A stretch of 64,000 nucleotides of DNA from a virus (lineage: Duplodnaviria; Heunggongvirae; Uroviricota; Caudoviricetes), in IMG/VR virus record IMGVR_UViG_2648501802_000002; one strand, 5' to 3'. A model generated the notes under the pieces. It searched no databases and was not told the DNA's origin. It worked only from the letters and a program-made list of their open reading frames with translations. Shown piece after piece: positions 1,766-41,700 of the stretch; positions within the stretch are counted from its first letter, which is position 1, and every line of letters begins with the position of its first letter. A program made the translations under genes and the position numbers.

Positions 1766-1780
1766 GCCATGGCCTCCGGG

Positions 1781-3996: not shown

Positions 3997-4049
3997 GCAC
4001 AGTAATGAGGTGCTTAGATGTTAATATCAATATCCTAACTCTCTGCATC

Positions 4050-4739
4050 TCATAAATCTGATAGCCACTTACTATCTATGGACTCAATCTCCGTCAGCGG
4101 AATTGATGGGAAAAAATATCCCTGAGCGCCCCATAGCCCTATTCCTTTTGATAACTTATGACAATCAATGTTTTCGACGCCTTCAGCGATGATATTCGGA
4201 CATAACTTTTTTAAATTGCTAATAATGACATCAAAATGAGGCTTAATCATATGCTCTTGAAAAAATGACTTATCAAGTTTTATTGCATGGTATTTATTTT
4301 TAATTAATGCTTTCATGGTGGCGTTACCACTTCCAAAATCATCAAGCCAAACATAGTCTGTCAAAGTCAGGAGAAAGGGTATAACGTAATCCTCATCGCT
4401 TAAATCAGGGTAGTTTTCTGATATCTCAAGAACTATAAATTTATTGTTTTTAATTAACTCTTGAGTTTGTTTATTACTGTATATATATATACATGTATCA
4501 TAATCTACATTAATAGAACATAGTATATTATGGCGTTCAAAAAAACACTTGTATTTCATTATTGTGTTAAGTTGTGATTTAAGTAAATTAATCTTCATCT
4601 TATTGGTAAACATACCCAATACTCTTTGAGTAGGAAGAGCGACACCATCTTTGGAGCGAAATCTGCTTAACACTTCTACTGCAATCAACTTGTTCGTGCT
4701 CGTAGAAATGATTGGTTCTGCAATGTAGATAACTTCCAT
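4050..4739 (-). CDS. YdiV-like degenerate EAL-domain protein (AT-rich cargo)
   Basis: 229-aa ORF; aligns by eye to E. coli YdiV blocks (FIVLEISENYPDL vs FIELLINENYPHL; DDFGSGNATMKAL...KLDKSFFQE vs GNLGAGNSTMKAV...MLDKSFIQQ); very AT-rich relative to neighbours. Confidence 0.6.
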   Translation of the reverse strand: MEVIYIAEPIISTSTNKLIAVEVLSRFRSKDGVALPTQRVLGMFTNKMKINLLKSQLNTIMKYKCFFERHNILCSINVDYDTCIYIYSNKQTQELIKNNKFIVLEISENYPDLSDEDYVIPFLLTLTDYVWLDDFGSGNATMKALIKNKYHAIKLDKSFFQEHMIKPHFDVIISNLKKLCPNIIAEGVENIDCHKLSKGIGLWGAQGYFFPSIPLTEIESIDSKWLSDL

Positions 4740-4975
4740 ATCCCCACCCTCAAGTTTTAAATTGCTTGATTTTGCTCAGATAACGAGCCCCCTATATTTA
4801 CAAGAGTTACACTCTACTTTTGTAGATTAAATGTCAATTTATTTGTTTGTGATAATATTGAAAAATATCAATTAAAACAATCAAAAAATGTGACATAAAT
4901 CAATAATTTTATTTTTACACAACTTCTTGATTTCTGAGCCTAGCTATCTCTATTCTTATTCAAAGCCTCTTTAGA

Positions 4976-5710
4976 ATGGTGGTGGCCATGTCAGCAGTTT
5001 GTTACTTCATACTCATAAAGAAACCTATAAGCTTTCAATTTCTTAAGGATTTCTTAATATTAAATTATGGTGATGTGTTGTTGCTTAAGCATTCTGAGCA
5101 TGAATGCTTAAAAATCTATTCAGACAAATATATAGAATTCGAACTCAATGATAATACCGTAAGAAACTATTTATCATGCAACAACAACCATGGAAACCAA
5201 TCGCTGGATAAGTGTCCGCATTTGCTAAAAAAGTCTTTTGCCTATCCTGATTTATTAATCAGGATGATCGATAATATAAGCGATCAAAATCATATCCATT
5301 CTGATTTTAGGGAGGCAGTAACTTTTTCATTACTCTCAATTTTTAATGATGTTGATAACTTTAGAGCATTTCTTACGTCTGGTATGCCCACTTTCTCAGG
5401 GAAAGTGCGCAGCATATTTCTTTCAGATGTATCTAAACACTGGAAACTAAGAGACCTAACCGATTATCTCTACATGAGTGAAAGCTTAATAAAGAAAAAA
5501 CTATTATTGGAAAACACCTCCTTCAGTAAGTTATTACTTGATACACGGATGGCTTTTGCTATTAAATTACTAAAGCAAAATCATCCAGTCAAACAAGTAT
5601 CAGAAAGCTGTGGCTTTAGTAGTACATCGTACTTTGTGTGCCTGTTCAGGCAATATTATAATTGCACGCCACGTGAATATGCAAAACATCAATTATTATC
5701 TGGAAAATAA
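4976..5710 (+). CDS. AraC/XylS-family transcriptional regulator (GadX/AppY-like), AT-rich cargo
   Basis: 244-aa ORF; C-terminal AraC HTH (SESLIKKKLLLENTSFSKLLLDTRM...SSTSYFVCLFRQYYNCTPREY) close to GadX/AppY pattern; divergent from the EAL gene across an AT-rich intergenic region. Confidence 0.65.
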   Translation: MVVAMSAVCYFILIKKPISFQFLKDFLILNYGDVLLLKHSEHECLKIYSDKYIEFELNDNTVRNYLSCNNNHGNQSLDKCPHLLKKSFAYPDLLIRMIDNISDQNHIHSDFREAVTFSLLSIFNDVDNFRAFLTSGMPTFSGKVRSIFLSDVSKHWKLRDLTDYLYMSESLIKKKLLLENTSFSKLLLDTRMAFAIKLLKQNHPVKQVSESCGFSSTSYFVCLFRQYYNCTPREYAKHQLLSGK

Positions 5711-11353: not shown

Positions 11354-13084
<1,731 letters not shown>

Positions 13085-14340
13085 ACGGCAAACATTCCCA
13101 ATTCACAGAGTCCGACCTAAACCACATGAAGCGGCTTAGGAATTACAGACTCTCCAAGGGCTAACACTGCCAGCCCGGCAGCTTTTATATTACGGGCCGC
13201 GTTAATATCACGATCATGCTCTGCGCCACATTCCGGGCAGTGCCATTTACGAATATTAAGAGGCATTTTTTGCATGGTGAAGCCGCAACTGCTGCAACGT
13301 TTGGAAGAAGGGAAATACTGGTCGATAGCGACAATGCTACGTCCACCCCATTCTCCTTTGTACTGGAGTTGGCGTACAAGTTCGCTCCAGCCTGCGTCAG
13401 CTATTGCTTTAGACAGCTTCGGGTTACGGATCATGTTTTTCACTTTAAGGGATTCGACGCAAACAACTTGGTTTTCGTTAATCAGTTTGCGGGACAACTT
13501 ATGCAGGTTATCCATCCGACAATCGACTATTCTCGCGTGGAGGCGGGCAACCTTTAAACGTGCTTTGGCGCGGTTCTTTGAGCCTTTTTGTTTCTTGCTC
13601 AATCTGCGCTGTAACACTGCTAATCGCTTCGCGTATTTAGCGTTGTGTCGAGGATTGCCAGTTTTAAAACCGGTATCGGTGACGAACAAATCTTTTAAAC
13701 CAATATCAATGCCGACCGTGGAAACGGTGATCGGCAGTGATACAGGCTCAAACTCGCAGAGACAGGATACAAAATATCGTCCGGCAGCATCCCTGGTGAT
13801 AGTGACAGTGGATGGAGCAGACGGCAACGGACGGCTCCAGCGAACATCTAACGGCTCTTTGCTCTTTGCCATGTACAGCTTGCCGTCACGGTATTTAAAT
13901 GCGCTGGCAGTTAGTTCTGCGGCCTGTTTATGCCGCTTGCTCTTAAAAACTGGGTATGCAGCACGCCCGGCGAAAAAGTTAGCAAAAGCCGTTTGTTGGT
14001 GGCGCAGAGACTGCTGGAGGGGGACGCAGGAAACGTCATTCAGCCAAGCGAATTCTGGTTCTTTTTTCAGTGCCGTTAATTTGGCGCTGGCTTGTGCATA
14101 GCCGACCCTCTCATGGCGTGCGTAGTACGCATCGGTGCGCCAGCGAAGGAGGCTGTTATAGACAAAACGCACACACCCAAAAGTCCGGGCTAATAGCTCG
14201 GTTTGTTCGGGAGTTGGATAGAATCGATATTTATAGGCACGCTTCATGTTCTATATAATACATTGAAACTAATGAGTATATAAATGAATACACGGACGAA
14301 AATGTTATCAAAGCCAATATACCAACAGACATTAGGTAAG
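13085..14340 (-). mobile_element. IS200/IS605-family insertion sequence (tnpB-only, IS1341-like); ends approximate
   Basis: Single TnpB ORF without tnpA, inserted between the prt-like and pro-like genes; element boundaries not mapped, taken as the flanking intergenic space. Confidence 0.4.
13117..14247 (-). CDS. tnpB: TnpB (IS200/IS605 OrfB) RuvC-like RNA-guided endonuclease
   Basis: 376-aa ORF; N-terminus MKRAYKYRFYPTPEQ typical of OrfB; C-terminal zinc finger CSSCGF...CPECGAEHDRDINAARNI. Confidence 0.8.
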   Translation of the reverse strand: MKRAYKYRFYPTPEQTELLARTFGCVRFVYNSLLRWRTDAYYARHERVGYAQASAKLTALKKEPEFAWLNDVSCVPLQQSLRHQQTAFANFFAGRAAYPVFKSKRHKQAAELTASAFKYRDGKLYMAKSKEPLDVRWSRPLPSAPSTVTITRDAAGRYFVSCLCEFEPVSLPITVSTVGIDIGLKDLFVTDTGFKTGNPRHNAKYAKRLAVLQRRLSKKQKGSKNRAKARLKVARLHARIVDCRMDNLHKLSRKLINENQVVCVESLKVKNMIRNPKLSKAIADAGWSELVRQLQYKGEWGGRSIVAIDQYFPSSKRCSSCGFTMQKMPLNIRKWHCPECGAEHDRDINAARNIKAAGLAVLALGESVIPKPLHVV

Positions 14341-14359
14341 GTAGCTGGAGGGCAATATA

Positions 14360-25620: not shown

Positions 25621-26460
25621 GTGCGCCCAGCATGGGCGCGATCTTGGAGGTGAAAGCCCTCCCGCGAGCTGACCACAGCGAGCGAAAGGAAGTGCAACTG
25701 CGTGAGGGCGGCTAGGCGTGGGGAGGAAGCACGGAATGAACCCGTGAGCCGATGAACAAGAATCGGATATGAGGCGCGATGGAGCAAGGCGAGCAGGCAC
25801 ATCACTGCGAAGCTTTCGTGACAAAGTCGCGTAGATCCGACGGTTGTGCGGGGAAGGATCGCGTTCTTACCTGGGGAGTTCTCGCCTCATGCCTGAAAGG
25901 GCAACGTCGTAAGACGGAGCGAGAAGTCAGCAGAGGCCGTAGTAGTCAGGACTCCGACGAAGGGCCGAACGAGAAGGAAAGCCAAAAGATATGACTCTTG
26001 ACAGGACATTGCGTCAGAAGCCGGGGAAGCCCGGTACGGACCCGCATGCCGGGTGGTGTGGCAGGGGCGCAGCCTTGTGCTCCCCCCTATGCCGATCAAG
26101 CAGAACATTGTGCTGGGCCTCTGACGCATCTCCTTGATGGTCTTGGCATCGTGCTTAAGTGGATTGGTGTCGTCTCTGATAGGCTCATGGAGGCAGAATG
26201 AAACTCAAAAATCCGGGACAGCACGCAAAACAGGCTGCACAAAAAGCGCAGGTTGCGTAGGAGTGGAATCCCGCTCCCAAAAAATGGTGCAGAAGTTGCG
26301 GCAGTGGTCATCCGACGCACTGGAAAATAACAAACCCGCCGTGACCAGAATCGGAGGCCTGAGGGAGTGACCGTAAAACCGGATAACCCAGGCAGCAAAT
26401 ACCCGCTGGATGAGGCATGGTTCCGGCAGATAATACCGAAAACCGCCAGACACACTGGAT
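25621..26460 (+). mobile_element. Group II intron 5' fragment (domains I-III-like RNA, no intact maturase ORF); 3' boundary approximate
   Basis: Starts GTGCGCCCAGCATGGGCG (compare Ll.LtrB GTGCGCCCAGATAGGGTG); shares motifs GCGAAAG, AATCGG, GTCGC and CGTAGTAGTC...GAAGGG with LtrB domains I-III; GNRA-rich; only short ORFs on either strand. Confidence 0.5.
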
Positions 26461-26516
26461 AATCAGTAGAAATAACCCATTAAAATCATTATAATAATTG
26501 GGCACATTATTATATT

Positions 26517-27080
26517 ATGCTGAATAATAGAGACATGAATATTAATGAACTTAAAGACTGTATTCACTATGAAGTAATCGGTAGCGAGCGTCCTTTCTCC
26601 TGGCGAAAGGCAATTGTTCGCGCAATAAAACATAGAAGAGTTCGTTATTTATTTTGGTGGCGCATAGCCAAATACCTTTTTGATAAAGGCGGATACTGTC
26701 GGAAGATTGCGGGGAAAATGGAACGTTTCATTCTTGATAAATATAGTGTAACAGTCCCTTTAACTGTAAATATAGGGAAAGGCTTTGATATTTCTTATCT
26801 CAACGGTGTTGTTATCGGTCACAAAGTAACCATTGGTGAAAATTGTTCAATAAAACCAGGGGTAACTATTGGGCTACGTGGTGATTTTAATGATATGGAT
26901 ATTGTTATAGGACATAATGTGACCATTGGTTGTAATGCCACCATTCTTGGTGGCAAAGTGCGTATAGGAAACAATGTCACAATAGGTGCTCATGCATTGG
27001 TATTGCATGATATTCCTGATGATTCAACATTCATCACTAAATTTCAGTCTGAAGTTATCTGCTCGTCCTCTTGCACATAA
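26517..27080 (+). CDS. Hexapeptide-repeat (left-handed beta-helix) acetyltransferase, AT-rich cargo
   Basis: 187-aa ORF with tandem hexapeptide repeats ([23 protein letters not shown]...[34 protein letters not shown]); 3' end overlaps the convergent tfa stop by 37 nt. Confidence 0.7.
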
Positions 27081-27661
27081 CCCTGATTCATCAGCTCTGG
27101 CCATACGATATCCGGAGCTGTACTGGTGTCAATTCGACTCACTAATACTCTGTATTTTCTCCAGGAATCCAGTTGTGAATTTTCCTCGGTTGTTGCTATT
27201 TCAAGATTAACTGCATCCTGCAGAATTGCGATGTTATCTGTTGCCTCCTGAATCAACCTTGCCTTTTTCTCTTCCGCTTCCCGTATCCGAAACAGTTTTT
27301 CTGCTTCCTCATCCTTCACCCAGGATACGCCGTCCCACTTCTGATACTCCCCTGCTGGCGACAACCAGGTGACATTCTCTGGTAACGGTCCGAGTTCAGA
27401 AATAAACAACGCGTCCCCCGATGCCACGTCATAGACCGTTTTACCACGATGGTCTTCAACAATAATCCATGATTCATTTTCACTGTTAAAAACTGCCACA
27501 AAGCCAGCAGGAATTTCCGGTGGGGCGATATCTGTAGAATTAGCTGGTAGCCCTGTATGAGGTGGAATATATGCGTCACCTTCACCAATAAACTCATTAG
27601 TTCCGGCGAGCAGGTTATAAATTTTTACAGTACGTGATTGTTCACTCATTCTGAATGCCAT
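27044..27661 (-). CDS. tfa: Tail fibre assembly protein (lambda Tfa-like) with altered C-terminal tail
   Basis: 205-aa ORF; [60 protein letters not shown]... nearly matches lambda Tfa; last about 16 residues differ. Confidence 0.8.
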
Positions 27662-28552
27662 TATGCAAGCCTCACAATATAATTAAATGCGATGTTTTTA
27701 ACGGTGTTTTCCGAGTTACCAGCAGCGTTAACGGTGATGGTGTGTCCATGTGAACCAATCGCAACAGAGTGCGTATGAGCGCCAATATCAACTGTATGTG
27801 CATGCGCCCCTGCACTTGCAGCGGTGCCTGATACTGAGTGGGTGTGTGCACCAGAAGAAGGCACAGTTCCATTCCCCACCACAGTGCCGCTTGATGAGCC
27901 ATCAAGCCAGTCGAAATTCATACCGCCACCATCTGGTCTCCTTAATGGAACGGTATGAGTATGTGCGCCAGCACTATTTGCAGTACCAGATACATTGTGG
28001 GTATGTGCACCTGTGTTATTCGTTGATTTAGTACCGTAATCAAACGAAGATGTGGTTTTCGTACCCAAATCCGTATTGGATGCGCTGGCGCTGTGGGTGT
28101 GCGATTTAATGCCATCCTGTTCCAGAGACAATACGTCCCGACCACTGGCGGGTTTGCCCTTGATTGTCCAGCCACGCATATCCGGGATCACGCCTGACGG
28201 ATAAGCGGCTGCAAGTTTCGGGTATGCAGATTTGTCAAAAGTCTGTCCCTGCATCAGGGCGTAACCAGACGGCACAGTATCTGATGGCCACGGATGCGGA
28301 ACACCAACAGGAAGGACCTCAATATCCCCGGAACCATCAAACGAAACGTTATTAATTTTACGGGCTGTTTTCAGCTTTGTAGCCGTTGAGGCATTGCCGG
28401 ACAGCTCACCAGAAATGCCACCAACAACTGTTAGATCACCAGTTATTGTGCCGCCTGAACTTTCCAGTTTTTTAGCAACATCACTCTTAATAGAGTCGAT
28501 TTCTTTTTTTCAGATTAGTTATATCTGCTGGTATCGTTGTCACTGTTGCCAT
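27661..28552 (-). CDS. Tail fibre receptor-binding protein (lambda Stf C-terminal domain-like); frame broken at an A7/T7 run
   Basis: ATG at 28552 ([16 protein letters not shown]) then frame switch at T7 run 28504-28510 into ...[40 protein letters not shown]...[11 protein letters not shown], which matches lambda Stf C-terminus. Confidence 0.6.
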
Positions 28553-28725
28553 ATTAATTCCTTACGCCCATTCCCGCAGCGGTTGTTCTAATTGAACTTC
28601 AAAACCATCAAACATTTGTTGTTTCAAACTGTTGTTTAAAATACGAACATTAACGAAGAAGCCATCATTTTTAATCACTGTTGGTTCTTCGTTCTCGCCG
28701 TTTGGTATTTCGGTATATGTAACAC

Positions 28726-30153
28726 CTACAACATCAAGAAGAATGTTGTTTTGCAGCTCTTCATTATCGTGGTGCCGAGTTCTCTTAAACCAAGGTATTG
28801 GATAACAGCAAGGACGCTTGTTTTGGACAGAATATCGCGACCGACTGACGTTAAGTCAGTCTGAGAAACAGTGTCTGTACCGGTAAAGTACGGCAGTTTA
28901 TTTGCGCCTGTAGCAAGACCAGCAAGCGCGGTTAAAGTTGCATCCAGAGGCTGTTTGCCTGCCAGCGCATTTGTCATTGTTGTCGCAAAGTTCGGGTCAT
29001 TACCAAGTGCTGCGGCAAGCTCATTCAGGGTATCAAGAGCTTCTGGTGATGAACCAACCAATGCGGATATGGCAGCTCTTACATAAGCAGTCGTAGCAAT
29101 CTGCGTATTATTTGTGCCCTGCGCAGCCGTAGGCGCAGTAGGGACTCCCGTTAATGCAGGGCTTGCCAAAGGCGCTTTGAGGGCTAGGGCATTGTTGATA
29201 GTTGTGCTGAAATTCGGGTCGTTATTGATCGCAGCAGCTATTTCTTTAAGCGTATCCAGTGTGCCAGGTGCACCGTTGATAAGTGCCGTTATAGCTGACT
29301 TAACAAAGGCTGTATTTGCGATCTGCGTGCTATTTGTACCTTGCGCTGCCGTCGGCGCGGTTGGCGTTCCTGTCAGACTCGGGCTTTCTATTGGCGCTTT
29401 GGTATCAGCAAGACCTTTTACAGACTTAACGGCTTTAGGGGTAGCCGCCATTGTTTCGCTGTCGCTGTTAGTTTCGCTACTGAGCTGAACTAATCCCTTT
29501 TGCGTTGTGCTTGCATCCTGTGCCGTATACTTGCTTTTCGCCAGATCGTAGGCTTTTTTAGCTGCCAGCGAACTTGCAGCAACATCACTTCTGCTACTGG
29601 TTACAGAGTCTGAAATATCAATGCCGATCGTGCGGTTAATACGCTCGGATGTATCAATCATCTCCTGGGTAATGGCTGATACGCCAGCAGGGATATTCAC
29701 CGTACAAACAAGCAGCTCTCCATCTCCTAACTGATATGAATCGGTATAGGTTCTGGCAACAAATTCAGCCGCATGAATATGTGACGCGGTATTAACCTGA
29801 TAGGTATCCTCTCCAAGGAGGTATCTTCCCTTCAGCACAATTGCATATTTCTTGCCTTCACTAAGTGCAAGAGAAATATCCTTACGGTGCCGAATAGTTA
29901 CCTGGTAGAATTCACCAATATCCACTGACGCAGCGCCAGCAGTTTTATCACCATCCACTGAGGTGATTAACAGGTTCATACCACCGCCAGGCTTCGGCAG
30001 GAAACCGGCATAAAACCCAGGATCAACAATTCCCCTGAATTTTCGGTTTAGCGCGGCTGACAGATATGGTTCGTGGTATTGCACATCAGCCACCAGAGCC
30101 AGTGACTCGGGCGATGGGTAAGTAACTGATGTAACAACTGTAACGTCATTCAT
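28726..30153 (-). CDS. Tail fibre protein, constant part (P1 S / lambda Stf middle-region-like)
   Basis: Start at ATG 30153 (MNDVTVV...); contains fibre repeats GTPTAPTAAQGTN.TQIANTAFV and ...TALAGLATGANKLPYF...GRDILSKTSV as in lambda Stf; frame ends 12 codons after the crossover site. Confidence 0.6.
   Translation of the reverse strand: MNDVTVVTSVTYPSPESLALVADVQYHEPYLSAALNRKFRGIVDPGFYAGFLPKPGGGMNLLITSVDGDKTAGAASVDIGEFYQVTIRHRKDISLALSEGKKYAIVLKGRYLLGEDTYQVNTASHIHAAEFVARTYTDSYQLGDGELLVCTVNIPAGVSAITQEMIDTSERINRTIGIDISDSVTSSRSDVAASSLAAKKAYDLAKSKYTAQDASTTQKGLVQLSSETNSDSETMAATPKAVKSVKGLADTKAPIESPSLTGTPTAPTAAQGTNSTQIANTAFVKSAITALINGAPGTLDTLKEIAAAINNDPNFSTTINNALALKAPLASPALTGVPTAPTAAQGTNNTQIATTAYVRAAISALVGSSPEALDTLNELAAALGNDPNFATTMTNALAGKQPLDATLTALAGLATGANKLPYFTGTDTVSQTDLTSVGRDILSKTSVLAVIQYLGLRELGTTIMKSCKTTFFLML
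28773..28798. other. Din-family DNA invertase crossover site (gix/cix/hix-like 26-bp dyad) inside tail fibre gene
   Basis: TTCTCTTAAACCAAGGTATTGGATAA: 12-bp inverted half-sites around a central AA; lies where the fibre constant region ends. Confidence 0.5.
28885..29420. repeat. Tandem repeats of about 180 bp within tail fibre gene; coordinates approximate
   Basis: Protein-level repeat (...PTAPTAAQGTN.TQIA.TA.V..AI.AL...P..LDTL.E.AAA..NDPNF.TT..NALA.K.P) occurs twice, with matching DNA repeats. Confidence 0.4.
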
Positions 30154-30164
30154 CAAGCATATCC

Positions 30165-30599
30165 TTATGCTATAGTCGTGTTGATGGCCATAACTGCGGT
30201 ATATGTTTTTCCCACATACAGCGAGTCTTCCTGAACACAAATAATTGCGATGGGCTTATTCTCGTTATCCAGAACAACCAGAGTGTTGAATGGATAGTTT
30301 TTCCCTTCCTGCAACTGGCTTTGATCAAGGTCCATTCGGACAGTAATTATCCCGCCAGAGTAGGTTGGGACGAGGTTGATGGTGCAAAATTGACTGGTCA
30401 GTTCTGCCAACTCGAAAGTCTTTGGCAGTTCTCCAATGTCATAAGTACCATCTTCATTTTTGGTAACCAGCGAACTGGTGCCGAAAACGGCCTTGCTGAT
30501 TAAAAATCGAGAGCCTTTGTTAATGGACGATTCAGCGCGTCGCTGATAGTAATAATCCAACAACTGACTCTTATAGAGATTTGTTGAGACGTCAGACAT
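30165..30599 (-). CDS. Tail fibre-associated protein (P1 R-like by position)
   Basis: 144-aa ORF immediately upstream of the fibre gene. Confidence 0.35.
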   Translation of the reverse strand: MSDVSTNLYKSQLLDYYYQRRAESSINKGSRFLISKAVFGTSSLVTKNEDGTYDIGELPKTFELAELTSQFCTINLVPTYSGGIITVRMDLDQSQLQEGKNYPFNTLVVLDNENKPIAIICVQEDSLYVGKTYTAVMAINTTIA

Positions 30600-30677
30600 G
30601 ATTTTCCCTAATCAATGTTGTGAAGCCTCATTGTAAGAGAAGTAACTTGTCACCCCGCCCTGCGGACGGGGTAATTG

Positions 30678-31517
30678 TCAGGCATCGCTATCCAGCAGCA
30701 AATCATCTGCGCGGGAGCGATCAAACGTAGGCGTTGCTTTCACAATAGTGCCGCCCGGCGTTGCAGTGATCGGGGCACTAATCGACGTAACTCCGGCAAG
30801 CGAAGTTGTATCCGAAGTTTCAAACCAGCAGTACGCTTTTTCGGTATCAGAAATCTCGTTCAAAGTGATCATGTCGGCCTGTTCATTTACAACAACCGAC
30901 AAATAGAGCGTAAGCCCATCAAACACTATATGCAGTGGCAGTAGAGGCTTTACGAACTGATTAAACTTTCTGAGAATTTCTTCTGTAATTGCGGACTGAT
31001 CTATCGTGCCAGTAATACCCATTGTCCTGGCCAGGTCGTTTATGGGAATACTGATCATCCCTCTGGAAGTCAGAAACATCTCGCCGAATGTGCCGCCAGT
31101 AGTCTCCAGTGTGCTTTCTGGTATTAGAACTGTGCCATAGGGATGACGCTCAAGGTCCACCGGTGCATATATCGGATCCCATAAAACAGAAATACCGTTA
31201 AATTCGCGGTAAATTGTCTGGTTTATAGGACGTTCAGTTCCCTTAAAGTGGATCTCATCAAGCCGCTGTTGTAACAACATCGGAACGGAAGATGAGTTCG
31301 AGGTTCTGATAGTAAAGAACTGGCCAAGTTCATTTGTCCTGGTCTCCAGATCCTCCTTGCTCATGGAGAAAATAGACTTCCGGTTGGTAATTCGCTCCAA
31401 CCATGGGTCAACAAAGGTGTCCATCATTGACTGAACCAAATCAGCCAATGATTTATAGAGCAATGACTTTTGCTTAGCTGATGTAAGCCGGTTATTAAAC
31501 CAGGAACGCTGCATCAC
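30678..31517 (-). CDS. Baseplate/tail structural protein
   Basis: 279-aa ORF in tail module, overlapping stop/start with upstream gene. Confidence 0.35.
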   Translation of the reverse strand: MMQRSWFNNRLTSAKQKSLLYKSLADLVQSMMDTFVDPWLERITNRKSIFSMSKEDLETRTNELGQFFTIRTSNSSSVPMLLQQRLDEIHFKGTERPINQTIYREFNGISVLWDPIYAPVDLERHPYGTVLIPESTLETTGGTFGEMFLTSRGMISIPINDLARTMGITGTIDQSAITEEILRKFNQFVKPLLPLHIVFDGLTLYLSVVVNEQADMITLNEISDTEKAYCWFETSDTTSLAGVTSISAPITATPGGTIVKATPTFDRSRADDLLLDSDA

Positions 31518-32947
31518 TCCTCCTCATACGAAATATTAAAGGTGGAGCTTTCTGTATCCAGATAAACGAAATCGTAAAAGCCGTTGGACTCATTCCACTC
31601 GACAAATTCCAGATAAAAGTCGCGGAAATAACCCAGCGTTTCGATAAACGCCCAAACGTCTTTTTTCTTAATCAGGATGTACTTTCCGACGCGGTTCGGA
31701 TCAAAGAAAGTTGAGTCGCGCCCAAATTTTGTTTCCAGTGCCGACTTCAGCTCATCGGTCACATTCTCAATGGTCAGGCTTGCCGATATCCGTCCGGTGA
31801 TGGTTATCTTAAATGGTAGTTTTCTGACCTCTTTATAAGAGAATTTCTTGTTCAGTTCATTCGGTACCTTCTTAAAGGCAGTCAGGATCATTTCTTCAAG
31901 CTCTGACTGGCTTTTATTTGGATGCCATCCTGAAATAAATATCTTATTGATATTCTGAACATTATAAGCACCATCTAATTTCTCTTGCTGGCCTTCGCCC
32001 CATGCCTTTACCCAGGACAGCCCCGGGATGTTACGAACCAGAAAATACGTATAGTCCCCGCCCCATACGACCTGATCATCATAGGCAAGGTAATATTGTG
32101 CACGGTTACGTGTGATCTCCGTTGTTTCAGCATCGGTACCTGCGGTTATAGGTGTCGTTGTCTTAACTGAAATCAAATTAGCTAAATCAGCCGCAGAATC
32201 GACAGGCGTCAGGTTTTGGCCAGCAACCAGGGTTATATCGCCGTTGGTGCACCATACCTTAAGCGTAATTGTCGAACCTTCTGGCGGTATTTGCCCAATT
32301 AGCCCATCGCCGAATCGAACCCCCAACTGCTCGGATGGTTTATAAAACTCAACGTAGACCTGGCTTTTACTACCGGCTAACCGGAACATAGTGCTGGAAG
32401 ACCACTGCGTGGTCTTCCCATCGGTTGTCACGAATACTTCCAGCTTATAGCAGACAGCAGTAAGAGCCTTTGATAACACGACTTCCAGAAATTCTTTGGC
32501 TGCCGTAACGGTATATGTCACCTCCTGGATTTCCAACTGTGCCACTTCTACCGTACCGGTGCCGTCAACCAACCTGCATACATCCATAGTCATGTAAGGG
32601 TACTGGTCGTCAGATATTAAAGGCATGTTTTTGGGGATTACCGCTGGGGCATCTTCACTTGTGGCGGTGATCTCAATCATCCCCGATGACGGTGTTGGCT
32701 TGGTACCAACATAACTGTTCGTTTCTGCCGCAGCCAGGATAGAGGAACGCCGCGTCGCGGTCGATATAAAGCCTTCAGCCAGCGCCGCATCGGCATACTG
32801 AAAGCACCTGTAGACAATCTGGGTAATAAACAATGTCAGCATCGAGACAAATTGAGAGCCGACAAACTTCGACCAGAATGAATCTTTCTCGACAAGCTCT
32901 TCAAACTCTGCACGAATACTGTCTTTAGTCGGTGTTGTTTTACTCAT
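31514..32947 (-). CDS. Baseplate protein (J-like)
   Basis: 477-aa ORF in tail module between sit-like and fibre genes. Confidence 0.4.
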   Translation of the reverse strand: MSKTTPTKDSIRAEFEELVEKDSFWSKFVGSQFVSMLTLFITQIVYRCFQYADAALAEGFISTATRRSSILAAAETNSYVGTKPTPSSGMIEITATSEDAPAVIPKNMPLISDDQYPYMTMDVCRLVDGTGTVEVAQLEIQEVTYTVTAAKEFLEVVLSKALTAVCYKLEVFVTTDGKTTQWSSSTMFRLAGSKSQVYVEFYKPSEQLGVRFGDGLIGQIPPEGSTITLKVWCTNGDITLVAGQNLTPVDSAADLANLISVKTTTPITAGTDAETTEITRNRAQYYLAYDDQVVWGGDYTYFLVRNIPGLSWVKAWGEGQQEKLDGAYNVQNINKIFISGWHPNKSQSELEEMILTAFKKVPNELNKKFSYKEVRKLPFKITITGRISASLTIENVTDELKSALETKFGRDSTFFDPNRVGKYILIKKKDVWAFIETLGYFRDFYLEFVEWNESNGFYDFVYLDTESSTFNISYEEE

Positions 32948-33303
32948 AGCACCACGTCCTGTGTGATAGTTATATCCCTGATACGAATGGATATTTTCAA
33001 CTTATCAAAAGCATCTCCCTCGGCTACTGACAAGCCAGAAATCGGTATGTCAGGTAAATCTACCGTCAGTTTTTGCAACAGCATTGCCTCAACCGCAATT
33101 TGAACATGCGACAAGTTGGTCGGTTCGTGTTTAAACTGCGGTAAAACATTGCCCCATGACGGATCTCCGTATACCTCACCCTGATAAGTGTTTAGCCACT
33201 CATATAAACGAGCGCCCCAGGCCTCCTCCTGGGACTCATACGTTTTTACGCCGGATAACTCCAGCGTCAGCAAAGGATCAATTTCGTTATTGTTGGCCAT
33301 CAA
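32944..33303 (-). CDS. Small baseplate-associated protein
   Basis: 119-aa ORF translationally coupled between sit-like and baseplate genes. Confidence 0.35.
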   Translation of the reverse strand: MMANNNEIDPLLTLELSGVKTYESQEEAWGARLYEWLNTYQGEVYGDPSWGNVLPQFKHEPTNLSHVQIAVEAMLLQKLTVDLPDIPISGLSVAEGDAFDKLKISIRIRDITITQDVVL

Positions 33304-36300
33304 TCAACTCTCGCGTAGTCATTCATCAACGGATCATCAATTGACAGTGGCACCGTGCGCATAACGCCCGGTTGAGGCGTGCTGACCTTTACGACAGTTC
33401 CCTGGCCTTTCGCCGAGTCTTTAGTGTGCTCTTCAATCCTGGCAAGCAATGAGGTCATCTGCGCAAACAGCCGCTTCGTTTCACCATCAAGTGAAACGGT
33501 ATTATCAGCCAACTGCATTGTCGGCTTGGCACCAGAGCCGCCAAGGTCACTAATAACCTGTCCGTCTATCTGCATACGACCGGTTGGTTGCTGCAAATCG
33601 TTGGCGGCAGTCGTCACCTGGGACGTGGAGGCTGGTTGAGGAGAGTTATTTGAGCGCATTCCCCGGGCATTAATGAGTTTGTCATACAGCCCATCAATCC
33701 CCATTTGTGCACCGAGTTGGTCAAAGTAACTTGAGTTGTTTGCTACCGGACGTGCCTCTTCAACTGGCATAGGTGTATCAACATACACATTGCCAGCAGC
33801 CGTTGCGGTTCCCCTTCCTCGTGCACGTTCTTCGAGGGTTCCCTGAACGACTTCCCGACGCATCCCCCGACCATTCATGAATTTGTTGACCAGATCGTTA
33901 ACGCCAACAGCATTACCGATTTTGTCTACCAAACCGCCTTTCTCAAACGGGCTATCACCAGGGGTAAACGCCAGACCAGTAGACTGATCGATAACGGCGT
34001 TATCAGGCAGTGGTCCCCTCACTCCATATTGCGCCCCACCCTGTGCTCCTGCTCCAGGTGTATAGATTTCACCACCTAAATAGCGAGCACGATGAGTATT
34101 GACCTTGATCGCGTACTCACGGTTTTCTTTCGATAAGTCACCTGTGCCTTTTTTCCACTTATTGATAGTGCCAAACCCAGCATTATATGCAGTGATGGCC
34201 TCGTTTAAGTCTCCATTGGCTTGCTTCAGATACTTGCTCATGAGAAGAGCCGCAGCTTCTGCCGATTTCACAGGATCAAATGCATCCTGTTCCGATATCC
34301 CTGTCTCTTTACGAGCAATACTCGTGAACTGGAACATCCCGAGTGCGCCACCACTTAACTTTCCATCTGGTGATCTTGTAAGCGGAGACTTTGCGTTAGG
34401 ATCCCCTCCTGATTCAGTTGCCGCAATCGAGTAAAGAGTGCCTTCAGGAAGGCCATATTTATTCTCTAGTTCAGCAAAATACGGAGCCAGCTTATCCAGA
34501 TTTGCCTTACCTTCAGCGCCAAGGCTTCCGACTTTTACATCTAAGTTGCCATTGTTGTAGGTATCCGCAGCTTTCTGAATGTCATTCCTAGTGCCAGTAG
34601 TATTAAGCGACGATGATGATGAGCTATTTTGACCAATAGCATTATCAATTTTCTGCAACGCTCGATTGCCCGTTTCTACGGCATTTGCATTGATAATCTG
34701 ATTGGCAGTTTCTTTAACTGTTTTATTGCTATCTTTCGCCGTCTCTAGGGATGCATTTACAACACGAGTGACAATATTAGCCTTTTTAGGGGTATATTCA
34801 GTCTTAGGAGCATTGTCCTCCTGACTTTCTTTAGCTGGTGTTTTTAATTCAGGTGTAACCTCTTTCGCATCCGCTTTGTTGACTAGCTTTGATGCAACCC
34901 AGGCCACAGGGGTGCTCTGAACAGCGGCATCGGCAACCTTACCAGGAAGCTCTTTTGCGGCATTCCATAGATTACTACCAGCCTCTTTAATGTATTTTCC
35001 CGGGTTCTTAATGAAATCAATTGCACTATCAATTGCATCACTGAAAACCTTTTTCAGGTTATCGACAGTAAAGAAGTCTTTGATGGCGTCTAATTTTTCG
35101 TTCAGACTCTTGGTTGTGTCACTGAACCAGGCTGAAATAGCATCGCCAATCTTGGCTGTGTAATCGTTGAATGTTGTGGATATGGTGTCACCAAGGTTAG
35201 AAATATATGTTTCTAAATTGGTAATCCCACTATCAATGGCCTGGGCAATACTTTCCGTCGAAAATGATTGCAACATATTGCCGATATCCTCAAATCCAAG
35301 TGATTTGAGAACGCCACCAATGGCATTGCTAATACCAGATACCAGTCCTCCCATATCGAGAACGTTAGCCAGTGTATAAGCCGCTTTTTGCTGAAAAGAT
35401 GGATCTTCCCCATCCTTAAGCCCAAAGGTCCGACGTTGTGCTTCTGTATCATTCCAACCGGTTACCGCATCATAGATACCTCCAGCCACCGTGCCGACTA
35501 GCGGAATTGCGCGTAAAGCCCCCTTTGCAAAAGCCTTAACACCTAGTTTCTCCAATCCCTTAGTTGCAAGTTTTCCGGCACCGCGAGTAGCCAATTCGCC
35601 AGCTTCTTTGGCAGCAGCTTTTTTCCCACCAAAGCCCAATAAGCTTGCAACTTTTTTTATACCTAAAGCGCCTAGTGCCATCGAGCCAACTTTCTTTAGT
35701 GCCCCACGGCAAAAAATAAGGGAAGCAATACCACCGGCCCCCTTCCCTAACAGGCTAAATAATTTGGACAGCAAGCCGCCCTTCTTTTTCCCGGTGTTTT
35801 TGGCTATCTGATCAAGGGCGCTGAGAATCTTGTCATTGCCCTCTTTAATTTCGCTGGTCTGATCCTGAAGTTCCTGAACCGTCCGTTTTTGGGTGTTAAC
35901 CTGAACGACATCGGCACTACTTTGCGATTTACGCCTAAAAAAACCTTTTCTACGGCTGTTATCGTCATTGCCACGAATCACATCGGCAATTGACTTTCTG
36001 GCACCATTAAGCGAACCGCCAACTTCTTTTGATATTCCGCCAAGCTCCTTTCCTGCTGCCCACAATGGACCAGCAACGGCATAACCTAAAGCATCGACGG
36101 CACGAGTCTCTGAAGGGTTACCTATGCCTTCAGCTACTTTTGACAGTTTTTTTAATAAACCCGATTCAGCATTTAGACGCTCATCATCCTCTTTGCGCCT
36201 AGCTTTTTCAGCACGTTCAGCACGGGCATCTTCCGCTGCGGCCTTACTCCCTGACTTCCCAATAAAACGACCACGCGCATCGCGTTGGTTTTGGCTTTTT

Positions 36301-36728
36301 TGCGCACCGCCTTTTTGACCGAACATTTCGCGAGCGTGTTCGGCTGCTTCGGTCCGTTGTGCCTTTACATCCTCTGGTATAGCCTTCCTGCGTCGTTTTT
36401 TACCCTTTGGTGTGGTTGATTTGGCCCGCTGTTCCTGTTGAGCAACATCTTCCTGAACTACACGAGAAACGTCCCCTAAGTTAAGCCGTTTCATTGCCTC
36501 AACAATAGGGTCCACTGATGGCGCATTGGCCACAAAGTCTGGCCGTGAATTTTCGATTGTGCGATTTAATGCCGACACACTGCGAGAGACAGGATCAACA
36601 GTTGCAACGCGCCCCCCTTTCAAATCTTCAACAGCTTCCCGGATACCTGCAAGCTCTTCCAGCTCTTTTGCGCTGGCGGTTTCAACTGTCCTTATAACAT
36701 CGTCAATGTTGGCGTTTTTTCGTTCCAT
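33300..36728 (-). CDS. sit: Sit-like tape-measure/injection protein with soluble lytic transglycosylase domain
   Basis: 1142-aa ORF; Gly/Ala/Lys-rich repetitive centre; SLT motifs ATESGGDPNAKSP...GALGMFQF...AYNAG; size matches recollection of P1 Sit. Confidence 0.6.
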   Translation of the reverse strand: MERKNANIDDVIRTVETASAKELEELAGIREAVEDLKGGRVATVDPVSRSVSALNRTIENSRPDFVANAPSVDPIVEAMKRLNLGDVSRVVQEDVAQQEQRAKSTTPKGKKRRRKAIPEDVKAQRTEAAEHAREMFGQKGGAQKSQNQRDARGRFIGKSGSKAAAEDARAERAEKARRKEDDERLNAESGLLKKLSKVAEGIGNPSETRAVDALGYAVAGPLWAAGKELGGISKEVGGSLNGARKSIADVIRGNDDNSRRKGFFRRKSQSSADVVQVNTQKRTVQELQDQTSEIKEGNDKILSALDQIAKNTGKKKGGLLSKLFSLLGKGAGGIASLIFCRGALKKVGSMALGALGIKKVASLLGFGGKKAAAKEAGELATRGAGKLATKGLEKLGVKAFAKGALRAIPLVGTVAGGIYDAVTGWNDTEAQRRTFGLKDGEDPSFQQKAAYTLANVLDMGGLVSGISNAIGGVLKSLGFEDIGNMLQSFSTESIAQAIDSGITNLETYISNLGDTISTTFNDYTAKIGDAISAWFSDTTKSLNEKLDAIKDFFTVDNLKKVFSDAIDSAIDFIKNPGKYIKEAGSNLWNAAKELPGKVADAAVQSTPVAWVASKLVNKADAKEVTPELKTPAKESQEDNAPKTEYTPKKANIVTRVVNASLETAKDSNKTVKETANQIINANAVETGNRALQKIDNAIGQNSSSSSSLNTTGTRNDIQKAADTYNNGNLDVKVGSLGAEGKANLDKLAPYFAELENKYGLPEGTLYSIAATESGGDPNAKSPLTRSPDGKLSGGALGMFQFTSIARKETGISEQDAFDPVKSAEAAALLMSKYLKQANGDLNEAITAYNAGFGTINKWKKGTGDLSKENREYAIKVNTHRARYLGGEIYTPGAGAQGGAQYGVRGPLPDNAVIDQSTGLAFTPGDSPFEKGGLVDKIGNAVGVNDLVNKFMNGRGMRREVVQGTLEERARGRGTATAAGNVYVDTPMPVEEARPVANNSSYFDQLGAQMGIDGLYDKLINARGMRSNNSPQPASTSQVTTAANDLQQPTGRMQIDGQVISDLGGSGAKPTMQLADNTVSLDGETKRLFAQMTSLLARIEEHTKDSAKGQGTVVKVSTPQPGVMRTVPLSIDDPLMNDYARVD

Positions 36729-36809
36729 GATCTTATCGCCTACCGTTTCGGTTTAAGTTTTTCTTCCAGTTTCTCCAACAGGAAAAACGCATAGGATTCA
36801 GTAAGCCTT

Positions 36810-37550
36810 TCAGCGTCCTGAATCGGTATACCCCCATACAAAACCAGGTTGGACACTAAGGTCTGATAGCTTTTCAATCCCCACCTGTGGAATGAAGTCG
36901 GTAGCCCGAAAGGGCACCCACAGACGGGTATATGCACCCTCTGTGGACTCCTTTTTATCCTGATTTGGGCATTTATGCGGCGGGAGACGAAGACGCATTT
37001 CACCTTTATCGATGTAGCACGGCAAACCATGTTCGAGCTTTTCATGAGCCAGTCGGATGTGTGCCGCCAGCTTCATAAATTCAGTATCAATGGCCATCCG
37101 TTTAATCGTTTCATAACGACGCTCAGCCTGATCTTCACGAGTACCGCTAACATCGTTATAAAGCTCACACTGATAAGCGAATTCCCAAAAACGCAAATCA
37201 ACGATCGCTTCTTTGAATTCCGCGTCGTCTTCAGGTGGCAATGCTGCACGGCGCATCTCCAGCATTTCCATTGCCCAACCATCAAGCGGCACGATACGCC
37301 ATTGATAAGGCACTCCCTCTACAGACACCTCAATATCGTCAATGAACGGTTCCGCTTCCAGGACCTGGATATCTTCAGCCAGGGCATTCATATCGCAATC
37401 GTAATAATGCTCTTTACCGCAATGTTTACAGGTGTAGGTGAATGTCTCGACCGGTGTTTCACGGGAGCCGGTAAATATCCACCATAACGCGGTAATCCGG
37501 TCCTGCGCCGTCCATGTCAGGGGATCATGTTTCGCGGGTTCAGCCAGCAA
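36810..37550 (-). CDS. Hypothetical protein at the lambda/P1-like junction; no ATG start as sequenced
   Basis: 246-aa ORF begins at TTG directly after the truncated stf stop; contains CKHCGKEHYYDC; may be 5'-truncated. Confidence 0.3.
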   Translation of the reverse strand: MLAEPAKHDPLTWTAQDRITALWWIFTGSRETPVETFTYTCKHCGKEHYYDCDMNALAEDIQVLEAEPFIDDIEVSVEGVPYQWRIVPLDGWAMEMLEMRRAALPPEDDAEFKEAIVDLRFWEFAYQCELYNDVSGTREDQAERRYETIKRMAIDTEFMKLAAHIRLAHEKLEHGLPCYIDKGEMRLRLPPHKCPNQDKKESTEGAYTRLWVPFRATDFIPQVGIEKLSDLSVQPGFVWGYTDSGR

Positions 37551-37555
37551 GGCTT

Positions 37556-38036
37556 TTAAATACGCGCTGCCGCCTGTGCGCTGTTAGCTGCATTCGTTTC
37601 TGAGGTTTTCGCCGCGTTCTTTCGATGATGCCGCTGCAGTTTCGGATTTCTTTGCCGCCGCTGCGCTCTGAGAGGCGGCTTCAGCGTTGCGTGCCGCTTC
37701 TTCCACCATTTCCTCAAAACGACGCAATGCCTCCGGCATGACATCATCTTCCGTCATGGCACCGAGAAAATCATTCAGCGTACCTGGTCTGGAACCTTCA
37801 TAGACGGTAATGGTCCCGGCATGTGAAGGCGGAAAACCTTCAACCAGCAGGGTGACGCTGTACTGACCATACTCAACATCCATGCTGTAACGCCCGGCTT
37901 CATCCGGATTTTCAGAGGCCACCGTGTTCACCAGTACCGTGGTGCTGTTACGCTTTGCCTTCAGTTGAATAGTGCAGTTCTGTATTGGTTTTCCCGCACC
38001 ATCTTTCAGCACACCTGAGATTTTTACTGCTGCCAT
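37556..38036 (-). pseudogene. stf: Side tail fibre stf, N-terminal fragment only, truncated and frameshifted
   Basis: MAAVKISGVLKDGAGKPIQNCTIQLKAKRNSTTVLVNTVASENPDEAGRYSMDVEYGQYSV... matches lambda Stf N-terminus; frame breaks after ...AAASSKE and an alternative frame ends ...KTSETNAANSAQAAARI-stop at 37556. Confidence 0.6.
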
Positions 38037-38046
38037 ATCCACTCCA

Positions 38047-38073
38047 CAAAAAAGCCGCCTGAACCGGCGGGCT
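38047..38073 (-). terminator. Candidate intrinsic terminator after lom
   Basis: Minus-strand hairpin CCGCC-GGTTCAG-GCGG followed by CTTTTTTGTGG. Confidence 0.35.
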
Positions 38074-38099
38074 GTCATAACACTGTGTTACCTGGCTAA

Positions 38100-38700
38100 T
38101 CAGAACTTATAACCGACACCACCGATGAAACCGTCAGTGCGCCAGTCGCCACTGCCGGAGCCTTCATAAGCAATATCAATGGCCACGGATTCGGTCGGGT
38201 TAAACTGCACGCCAGCTCCCCACGCCAGAGACGTGTTGCTGTGGCGATCGTCATCACTTCCGGTCAGCACATCGTGCGTTTTCCCCTTGTTGTCAGTTAC
38301 GCGGAGATAATCCCCGGAGAACGTCGAAACACGGCTGTAAGCCACACCTGCCATCGCATAAGCACTGAACCATTCATTCACGCGTACAGATGGCCCCGCC
38401 ATCATGCTGAACCAGCGGTTACGCACTGAATCTTCATGCCAGCGGGTATCGCTGTAATGCGTTTTTTGCTCATCTTTGGCATTGGCATAACTGAATGACG
38501 TCACCAGCCCCAGCGTGTCCGTAAATTCATAACGGTATTTCACGTTAATGCCCTTCAGGTCATCACTGCCTGGCATATCAGTATGGGCCCTGAAGATACC
38601 CGGCGCTTAGTGTGGACTGATGCTCTGCTGCGCTCGCTGGCGTACCAGCGGCAACCAGCCAGACTACTGCGGACAGAATAACAGCACATAATTTACGCAT
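38100..38700 (-). pseudogene. lom: Lom outer-membrane protein gene, frameshifted after the signal peptide
   Basis: ATG at 38700 gives MRKLCAVILSAVVWLVAAGTPASAAEHQSTLSAGYLQGPY-stop (38578-38580); remainder MPGSDDLKGINVKYRYEFTDTLG... in another frame matches lambda Lom; break at a G3 run. Confidence 0.75.
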
Positions 38701-38702
38701 AA

Positions 38703-41700
38703 TTACCTCTCGCTTTTCTGCAATAAAAAAGGCGTCATTTCTGACGCCCGTATTGGGGTTATAAAATTCAGCTGATACTGATGCCTGCGGTGGCTTTCTT
38801 CATCACCACAACCAGCAAATCGCTGATACTTGCTGTGGGATACCAGCCATTTACCCACCATGCTGATACCGAAAACTCCAGTGTCATTACCACTGCCTGC
38901 AGGCATATCAATAACACCCGTGTATATCAGAGTATTATCCAGAGCCGTTCGGTTATAAATTTCAGCCCCCGTTTTTTCTCCTATCAGACGGCATGACGAA
39001 TAAGTATCGCTATTTCTCCGTTCATCGTCTGGCACCGCTGAAAGCCACCGCCGGATAACAATTTGCCGGTCAAACGGCTGATCGTCATAAACCCTGACGG
39101 TAATGGTCCCTGATGGCCACCGTTCCGGTGCACGGGAGTCACGGGGGAAAGCTTTGCCCACTGTTTTAACGAGATCGCCTTCAATCTGGTTCGCGGACAG
39201 TTTTCCCAGAACCCGGCAGTTCTCGTTAATCGTGACGTTGTTGAGCGTCCCGGAGTTCGCATTCACGTTACCGCTGATATCGGCATTTTTTGCCGTCAGC
39301 CGCCCGTCCGGTGTCAGGGAAAATGCCGGAGGATTACCGCCGCTGGTAATGGTGGGAGCCGTCAGATATTTCAGGAACACTTCATTCATAAATATCTGAT
39401 CGCCCTGACCAACAAACATCGGCTTTGTGTTGCCATTCGCAGGATTAATCATCGCAATCCTGTCCGCCGCCAGCAGCACCTGACTCTGCATACCGTCAGG
39501 GGTATTCTCAATACCGGCACCAATACCCGCGATATAAAGGCGTCCGTCCTGCATCTGCTGCAGCTTCACAGCCCACATGCTGTTCAGGTTATTATTTGTA
39601 TCAACCTGAACCTTCTGTATCTGCTGAATTGCCGCACTCTGGTCTTCCAGTTTCTTATTGACGGTCTGCGTGATTTCATTGCTGACATCCGTAATGGACG
39701 TCCTGATTTCAGCCAGGTCAGGCGCAAGCTGACCGTTATCAATCTGCGTCCACAGCTCCTGAGCCAGATGGCTTTTCCCTATCTCTCCTTTGAAAAAATC
39801 CAGATAGCCGGATGCATCATCACTCGGCTGGCCAACAGCCTCCACAAATGCCGATTTGCCAACGGTGTTCACACTGCGGATGTAAAAATAATAATCATGG
39901 CCCGGTTTGATATTGATACTGGCGGCTATCCAGTACAGCGCCGTGCCAAGATAGCGGGCTGTGGTTTCAACCTGCCTGATATCGGTAATCCGCTTTTCCG
40001 AGAACCAGAACTCAAACTGTACCGTCGGGTCATAAATGGCAAGATGCGGCGTGGCGGTTATCTGAAAATAGCCCGGCGTCAGCTCAATCCTCGACGGTGC
40101 TGCCGGTGCGGCAATCCGGAACGATACCGACGCCGCATCGCCCTGCTGCCCCCACGCATTTACCGCCCGGACTGTCAGCCTGTAGTTCCCCAGCGCCAGT
40201 TGCGTGAAGCGGTATGTGGTTTCCGTCGTCCGGGCCGTGCTGACCAGCCGCTCACTGCCGTCGTCCGCTGTTACGGTCAGACGGAGCAGGAAGCTCACGC
40301 CCTTCACCACCTTCGGTGTGTCCCATCGCGCCAGCACCTGATATTCCCCGCTGTCTGCAGTGACTTCTGCGGTCAGGTGCTGCACCGCTGGCGGCGTGAC
40401 ACCATTCACCGTGCCACTCTGTTCGCCGTCAAAGTGCGCCCCGTTATCCACGATGGCCTCTTTTTCCGGCACATGCTGCACGGCGGTGATGGCATACGTG
40501 CCGTCGTCGTTCTCACGGATACTCACGCAGCGGAACAGGCGCTGGCGCAGCGTCGGCAGCTTCAGCCCCCATACGCTGTATTCAGCAACACCCTCAGGAA
40601 CACGGCTCACTTTTACCTTCACGCCGTCGTTGACGGACTGAACCTCCACGCTGACCGGATTGCCACTTCCGTCAACCAGGCTTATCAGCGTGGTACCGGA
40701 GGATGGCAGCGTGATTTCACGGTCGAGCGTCAGCGTCCGGGTCTGGCTGTTCACCGCCAGCACACGACCACCGGTGCTGATACCGGCATAGTCATCATCG
40801 CAGATTTCAATAACATCGCCCGGTACATGGCGAAGCCCTTCTGCGCCGACGCTGAAATCCACGGTCTGCGTCTCCAGCAGCTCCGTTTTAATCAGCCACA
40901 GCCCGGCGCGGTGTGCCTGCCCCCGGCTGGTACAGCCAAAGGCATCCATCTTCGTAACATTACGACCGTAACGGGCAATGGCCTGCGTATCTTCAACAAG
41001 CTCTGTCGCCGTCTCCCAGCCGTTGTCCGGGTCAATCCAGTTCACCTCAACGGCATTATGGCGGTCTTTCAGGGCGCTGAAGCTGTAGCGGAACGGCGCG
41101 CCATCATCCGGCATCACCACATTACTGCGGTTATAGGTCCACGCCTTATCCGACGGTCGGTCCTGCACGAACGTCAGCGTCTGCCCGTTCCATACCGGCA
41201 TACAGCGCATCGCCGAGCAGAAATCACTGAGAACGTCCCACGCCTTGCGCTGTGTGGTCAGGTACGCATTACAGGTGATGCGCGGCTCCGTGCCGCCAAA
41301 GCCGTCCGGCACTGACTGGTCGCAGTACTGGCCGATGACATACAGCGCCCATTTGTCCACATCCGCCGCACCAAGACGTTTCCCCATGCCGTAGCGCGGA
41401 TGGGTCAGCATATCCCACAGACACCAGGCCATGTTGTTGCTGTATGCTGGCTTAAACGTTCCGTCCCAGATACCGCTGTATTGTCGCGTCTGCGGGTTAT
41501 AGTTCGACGGCACCTGCAGAATGCGCCCGCGAAGATGATAATTACGACTCACCTGCTGGCTGCCGAACTGCTCCGAGTCCACCTGTACGCCGACCAGTGC
41601 CGTGTTCGGGTAGCACTGTTTCACATCGATGATTTCGGTGTATGACGACCAGAGCGTTTTGTTCTGCAGCTGGTCTGTGGTGCTGTCCGGCGTCATCCTG

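Follow-up and report, generated by a model that had tools for sequence, protein, structure and literature searches.

How does a lambda-like stf tail-fibre gene come to abut the baseplate and tail genes of a P1-like myovirus? The question is raised by a stretch of 64,000 nucleotides (nt), called the window in what follows, which is held as IMG/VR virus record IMGVR_UViG_2648501802_000002 (Caudoviricetes). An earlier account made from the letters and their open reading frames (ORFs), here the sequence-only reading, had described a stf gene truncated after about 175 codons, a 9- to 10-kb P1-like block beside it, and a lambda-like Stf C terminus with tfa resuming beyond that block, and it proposed recombination through shared fibre homology or a mis-assembly. 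Gene identities were assigned by Pfam and PHROG profile searches and RNA elements by Rfam, and the window was aligned with both parents.

Two elements meeting at one base

We have high confidence that the window consists of two ordinary, unrelated mobile elements abutted end to end. Positions 1 to 37565, at least 37.5 kb, are collinear P1-like phage-plasmid DNA, and positions 37566 to 64000 belong to a Rac-type chromosomal lambdoid prophage. Both parents had been named correctly in the sequence-only reading, with a siphovirus tail tip of Rac/lambda type on one side and a myovirus tail block like that of P1 on the other, but the P1-like DNA is not a block of 9 to 10 kb, as it continues collinearly down to position 1. 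Positions 1 to 25000 match a plasmid of Escherichia coli CH427 (97.5% identity, 95% coverage) and many further P1-like plasmids, while positions 27000 to 37565 are 96 to 97% identical to P1-like plasmids of VL7S7, MINF_9A, and 23CRST032 and 95% identical to phage P1. On the other side, positions 37566 to 64000 align in a single piece of 26.4 kb, at 99.9% identity, with the chromosome of E. coli FDAARGOS_1279.

The Rac part is a collinear trkG-head-tail-J-lom-stf block near-identical to Rac of related strains. Read from the join, the order is stf, lom, J, tail genes, head and terminase genes, trkG, and lysis genes. In FDAARGOS_1279, the Rac locus is flanked by pinR, ydfK, uspF, and ompN and holds an intact 791-amino-acid (aa) stf, followed by more fibre genes, a tfa remnant, and pinR. 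Compared with Rac at this ompN-uspF-pinR/trkG locus (FDAARGOS_1279 and 042), the likeness of the window begins at stf codon 157. There it gives way to P1-like DNA, and neither a full-length stf nor the distal end of Rac (fibre genes, tfa, and pinR) was found in the window; lom and the J C terminus are also frameshifted relative to the reference. As had been argued before, and we agree, siphovirus J/lom/stf and myovirus baseplate/fibre systems cannot build one virion.

At 37565|37566, both parents align up to the same base, with an overlap of 1 nt. No insertion sequence (IS) end, lox, cix, or att site, or filler sequence is found at the join. The break falls behind codon 42 of P1 pmgB and behind about codon 157 of Rac stf, and P1 homology ends at P1 coordinate 45247, 126 nt before the pmgB start. 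The second junction of any integrant falls outside the window, in which one junction is visible.

The gene fragments on the two sides are readily identified. The stf stub begins with an ATG at 38036 and has the lambda/Rac-type N terminus that had been recognized there (Pfam phage_tail_N, E = 1e-68). Its protein matches the first 139 residues of the reference Rac Stf at 100% identity, and lambda orf-401 at 82%. The frame break reported in it is also present, as an extra T at 37620 (+1) shifts the frame to a stop at 37584. Without this T, the frame is open to the join for 157 codons, and not for about 175 as first estimated, and stops two codons later. A Stf-PmgB fusion protein is ruled out, as Stf stops before the join or, with the frameshift removed, two codons past it. 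An intact full-length stf at this locus, which the sequence-only reading took to be incompatible with its mosaic join, is not there. The adjoining ORF, correctly described as lacking an ATG, is P1 pmgB without codons 1 to 42; it keeps the pmgB frame from base 37565 down to a stop at 36810 and spans positions 48 to 276 of the 276-position PHROG PmgB profile.

Recombination between lambda- and P1-type fibre genes, as first proposed, would have put a 9- to 10-kb P1 block into stf and split one Stf in two. Fibre and chaperone modules are exchanged among lambda Stf/Tfa, P1 S/U, Mu S/U, and P2 H/G. The P1-type locus of the window shares in this, with a C-terminal fibre part (ORF 27661-28275) whose protein is 66% identical to lambda orf-314 and a chaperone 81% identical to lambda Tfa. 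PHROG 295 matches the N-terminal stf stub and the distal C-terminal ORF alike, and the lambdoid phage Turner carries both modules at ~87% identity. The breakpoint, however, lies inside pmgB and not in a fibre gene, its overlap is far from a homologous tract at a single nucleotide, and P1-like DNA runs 27 kb past tfa with no return to Rac or chromosomal sequence. Searches by blastn (word size 11) found no similarity of the P1-like 37.5 kb to the Rac part of the window, nor to the reference distal Rac (the rest of stf, fibre genes, tfa remnant, and pinR), so homologous recombination via shared fibre sequence would lack a substrate. Together, these observations refute a fibre-homology origin of the join, to which we give next to no credence, and this mechanism does not apply whether the join is chimeric or real.

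The distal fibre genes instead have counterparts in free P1-like plasmids. Positions 26001 to 28420 are 97.8% identical in nucleotide sequence to the MINF_9A plasmid, in which holin, group II intron remnant, acetyltransferase, tfa, and fibre C terminus follow in the same order as in the window. The arrangement is also found in pCRST032_1 (23CRST032) and in a P1-like region of the PK8241 chromosome, and in the window the Stf C terminus and tfa are contiguous with P1-like genes on either side. On these alignments they are, with high confidence, the P1-like element's own distal fibre cassette and not the second half of Rac stf. Although all three modules of a stf-tfa unit are present, the N terminus is of Rac and the C terminus and tfa are P1-like, with 9 kb of P1 genes between them. 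The likeness of all these fragments to lambda was therefore rightly noted, but the fibre does not resume, as the stub and the distal ORF differ in origin. There is nothing new in a P1 backbone with a lambda-like fibre cassette, a module both known and common. Relative to that common module of P1-like plasmids, the copy in the window has been separated from S by a deletion and carries a frameshift.

Origin of the join

The join is private to this record. In a megablast search, no junction-spanning match was found among 5,426 complete E. coli genomes, 4,912 of which match either side, and the junction is likewise unspanned in 72,556 plasmids and 50,697 phages. A 30-mer across the junction has no match in GTDB representative genomes or in metagenome contigs of the Joint Genome Institute (JGI). 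Searches for an exact protein match to the Stf stub, to the PmgB fragment, to the truncated S, and to Sit found none on record.

The sequence on the two sides of the join differs in quality. Positions 37620 to 39054 account for 18 of the 28 differences and 11 of the 13 gap positions between the Rac part and its reference. These are chiefly changes in homopolymer length, which frameshift stf, lom, and the J C terminus, and the homopolymer-type indel nearest the join lies 55 nt from it. The variants of this stretch are private to the window, the best matches among the complete genomes being 98.2% and 99.5% identical. On the P1 side, the last 3.2 kb hold zero indels, and identity to the MINF_9A plasmid is 100% over the last 316 nt. 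Homopolymer errors occur elsewhere in the assembly, at 9101, 28504, 43267, and 48920.

Judging from the assembled sequence, we slightly favour a chimera from sequencing or assembly as the origin of the join, with a probability of about 0.5; mis-assembly had rightly been raised as the alternative to recombination. For instance, a long read or clone that was itself chimeric, or a bridge of low coverage, may have linked the strain's chromosome with a resident defective P1-like plasmid. We favour this because the junction is absent from all collections searched, because the elements offer no substrate for homologous recombination, and because quality on the Rac side falls, through private homopolymer indels, right up to the join. 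A further reason is the bluntness of the join, where the parents overlap by 1 nt and IS, lox, cix, and att sequences are all absent. Blunt joins are typical of chimeric reads or clones, and documented P1 integrations proceed via IS1 or loxP-loxB. The clean P1 side and the homopolymer errors elsewhere in the assembly are also counted for a chimera.

Several observations weigh against a chimera. The segment of J C terminus, lom, and stf N terminus is multi-copy in most E. coli (median of 2 places per genome, up to 14 to 15), so its errors could reflect poor repeat polishing unrelated to the join. The P1-like element further carries private blunt deletions at 9725|9726 (darB) and 28771|28772 (S) and an IS605-family tnpB insertion. 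As assemblers seldom invent blunt deletions or insertions of this kind, homology-independent rearrangement probably did happen in the element. Complete genomes in which P1-like elements are integrated beside resident prophages have, moreover, been described (Pfeifer and Rocha 2024, Nat Commun, PMC10879196).

If the join is real, the P1-like phage-plasmid, or a large part of it, was joined into Rac by homology-independent (illegitimate) end joining, destroying pmgB and stf and leaving a defective, decaying integrated P1-like prophage. In a variant, the window would derive from a plasmid-chromosome cointegrate or from a hybrid plasmid that captured Rac DNA. We regard a real join as a serious possibility, though short of an even chance. 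The element is already defective, with deletions of 1.95 kb in darB and 1.59 kb in S, the IS605-family insertion, and frameshifts, and a single in vivo process could account for all three blunt joints. That the junction is real, lacks homology or a recombinase site, and was made by the same process as the two other private blunt deletions is a slightly more tentative proposal. The high quality of the P1 side up to the breakpoint and the P1-like blocks in chromosome-labelled records of other complete genomes are consistent with a real join. Yet the junction is unique across every collection searched, and a 1-nt overlap is the rarest class of in vivo join in E. coli. The known P1 routes (IS, lox, and homologous recombination) leave recognizable joint sequence, none of which is seen here, and indel-type errors are clustered against the junction on the Rac side. 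The long genes sit, ddrB, darA, and bplA are intact, the exceptions being darB, S, and the second fibre gene, which gives no sign of long-term decay. A second junction, finally, would lie outside the view of the window.

Pfeifer and Rocha described chromosomal P1-like elements next to resident prophages, often flanked by prophage genes or recombinases, and the cause of integration was left unclarified (PMC10879196). The window resembles those elements in that defective P1-like DNA is contiguous with prophage genes, but here the contiguity is known from one assembled junction. That paper also gives no mechanism, whereas the joint in the window is base-pair resolved and homology independent. In long-read literature on enterotoxigenic E. 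coli (ETEC), P1-like plasmids are mentioned only as free.

Large P1-like blocks were also observed in chromosome-labelled records of three complete E. coli genomes, NCCP 15734, PK8241, and EC16 (records NZ_CP097001.1, 383000 to 432000; NZ_CP080139.1; and NZ_CM169485.1). In NCCP 15734, the neighbours of the block are IS26, a class 1 integron, and further plasmid genes, a setting suggestive of an integrated cointegrate.

Under either reading of the join, chimeric or real, the window encodes nothing new. Should the join prove an artefact, the contig ought to carry a chimera flag, and the apparent siphovirus/myovirus hybrid should not be catalogued as a mosaic or as an integrated P1. If it is real, the window adds one more P1-like phage-plasmid in a chromosome beside a resident prophage, a class already reported, and its sole added value is a base-pair-resolved, homology-free joint. 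It would then be an example of a phage-plasmid turning into a prophage that is integrated and decaying, a conversion described as unexplained in the literature.

The S deletion and the cix site

The deletion that uncouples S from the fibre cassette is seen by comparison with the AREA_494 and PSS-10 plasmids, where the order is S, a 92-aa gene, the second fibre gene, and tfa. In the window, 1.59 kb with blunt ends is missing, and with it the variable part of S and codons 1 to 23 of the 92-aa gene. The 28771|28772 joint is spanned by no complete E. coli genome, and its 30-mer is absent from the genome_contigs and metagenome_contigs collections. P1 homology halts at 28770, just past the cix site. 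No intact S is left: the gene consists of the constant part plus 15 out-of-context codons, followed by a stop, and is without its receptor-binding end. The S-like fibre of the sequence-only reading is thus P1 S as recognized, but in truncated form.

The crossover site described next to S is confirmed as a perfect 26-bp cix site and is the sole cix in the window. It is an orphan, as the window contains no cin. Likewise, no Cin/cix invertible C segment was found in the window, which has one cix, no cin, and a single cassette of fibre C terminus and tfa. The ORF at the position of P1 cin was considered as cin and ruled out by its Hexapep match, which identifies it as a hexapeptide acetyltransferase; its counterpart in P1-like plasmids is annotated as a serine acetyltransferase.

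The deletion joint lies ~10 nt from this perfect cix site, and Cin is able to use quasi-sites. The break could on these grounds be a deletion made by Cin, with cixR and a quasi-cix site as its two partners. We consider this very unlikely. The joint is ~21 nt off the central crossover dinucleotide, all 26 bp of the site are kept, the partner sequence in the 92-aa gene is unlike cix, and neither a cin gene nor a second cix is found in the window. The position of the joint and its non-cix partner contradict Cin-mediated deletion.

The second fibre gene starts at 28552 and has a run of 7 A where the AREA_494 plasmid has 6. The extra base, at 28504, causes a +1 frameshift 16 codons past the start, and its removal yields a 296-aa protein. 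The length of the poly-A run may reflect a sequencing error, or the run may be prone to slippage.

Gene content of the two elements

The features of the window are collected in Table 1. Between the S deletion and the join, the P1-like block has the synteny pmgB-sit-pmgA-bplA-16-R-S, with PHROG and Pfam matches, in the same order and orientation as in P1 (Punavirus, NC_005856), with which it also shares the cixR site. Nucleotide identity to P1 over 28770 to 37565 is 94.4 to 97.4%, and identity to P1-like plasmids (MINF_9A plasmid 3 and pCRST032_1) is 96 to 98% over 28772 to 37565. The Sit-like 1142-aa transglycosylase and baseplate-like genes noted earlier are hence sit, pmgA, bplA, 16, and R. 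The cassette of fibre C terminus, tfa, and acetyltransferase is the same as in MINF_9A, 23CRST032, and PK8241. Compared with P1 and P1-like plasmids, pmgB is cut, tub, pmgC, and LPsit are gone, the variable part of S is lost, cin is absent, cix is single, the second fibre gene is frameshifted, and darB is both deleted in part and frameshifted. The sit operon is incomplete, with tub, pmgC, and the LPsit late promoter replaced by Rac stf, and the sit-to-16 genes are deprived of this promoter.

Table 1. Positions of features in the 64,000-nt window, with strand and evidence
Feature	Positions	Strand	Evidence
P1-like phage-plasmid DNA	1-27043		Collinear with P1-like plasmids; CH427 alignment; Pfam
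Hexapeptide-repeat acetyltransferase, at position of P1 cin	26517-27080	+	Hexapep, E = 6.6e-13
tfa, tail-fibre assembly chaperone of P1-like element	27044-27661	-	Caudo_TAP, E = 2e-39; PHROG
Second distal fibre gene, lambda Stf C terminus-like receptor-binding part, frameshifted	27661-28552	-	PHROG 295 positions 607-794
3' remnant (69 codons) of 92-aa gene	28562-28771	-	Comparison with related P1-like plasmids
Joint of private 1.59-kb deletion	28771-28772		Alignment with AREA_494 and PSS-10 plasmids
Truncated P1 S tail-fibre gene	28726-30153	-	P1 alignment, Pfam, PHROG
cix site, perfect 26 bp, TTCTCTTAAACCAAGGTATTGGATAA	28780-28805		P1 cixR annotation
P1 gene R	30165-30599	-	PHROG 2032, E = 1e-83
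P1 gene 16, baseplate or tail-tube protein	30678-31517	-	P1 alignment, PHROG
bplA, baseplate wedge protein (gp6/J-like)	31514-32947	-	P1 alignment, Pfam, PHROG
pmgA	32944-33303	-	P1 alignment, PHROG
sit, structural injection transglycosylase/tail ruler, 1142 aa, intact	33300-36728	-	SLT domain, E = 3e-25
pmgB 3' part (codons 43-293), without start codon	36810-37565	-	P1 alignment, PHROG
P1-like/Rac breakpoint	37565-37566		Alignment of window with both parents
Rac stf 5' fragment, ~157 codons (470 nt of Rac sequence), frameshifted	37566-38036	-	Pfam, alignment
Error-rich stretch beside junction	37620-39054		Alignment to 99.9% reference
Rac-type lambdoid prophage: lom, J, tail, head, terminase, trkG, lysis genes	38100-64000	-	Alignment to reference

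Upstream of R, the P1 late promoter LPs (30625 to 30650) is conserved but for one base in its -10 hexamer region (GAGAAG versus GATAAG in P1).

In the Rac part, an additional C at 38588 puts lom (38100 to 38700) out of frame. In J, paired +1/-1 indels together with a deletion of 2 nt scramble the final ~100 codons, and the gene reads on to a later stop at 38703. The indels in lom and J look like uncorrected sequencing errors.

The rest of the P1-like element (1 to 27043) contains cargo genes, darB, prt/pro, lyz, ssb, ddrB, darA, lysis genes, and a group II intron remnant. Of these, darB, a giant antirestriction gene for an N6-methylase/helicase, has, relative to the CH427 plasmid, the private blunt deletion at 9725|9726 and a frameshift from a +1 T in a homopolymer at 9101; the deletion joint is spanned in none of the 573 genomes with darB. 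Against the same plasmid, positions 13070 to 14347 form a 1.28-kb insertion encoding a 376-aa TnpB of the IS200/IS605 family (OrfB_IS605 plus a Cas12f-like TNB domain), with no tnpA seen.

Fragments of group II intron domain 1-4 RNA lie at 25702 to 25965 on the plus strand (Rfam RF02001, 95.5 bits; RF01998, 46.8 bits). They have no intron-encoded protein ORF nearby and fall in a purine-skewed gap of ~1 kb between the P1-like holin and the acetyltransferase, a stretch that is kept in the MINF_9A and 23CRST032 plasmids. Near the other end of the element, a cargo block (776 to 5710) encodes a DJ-1/PfpI-AraC (GlxA-type) regulator, a metallo-beta-lactamase (MBL)-fold hydrolase, an EAL-domain protein, and a second AraC-type regulator, and this block is common to several P1-like plasmids.

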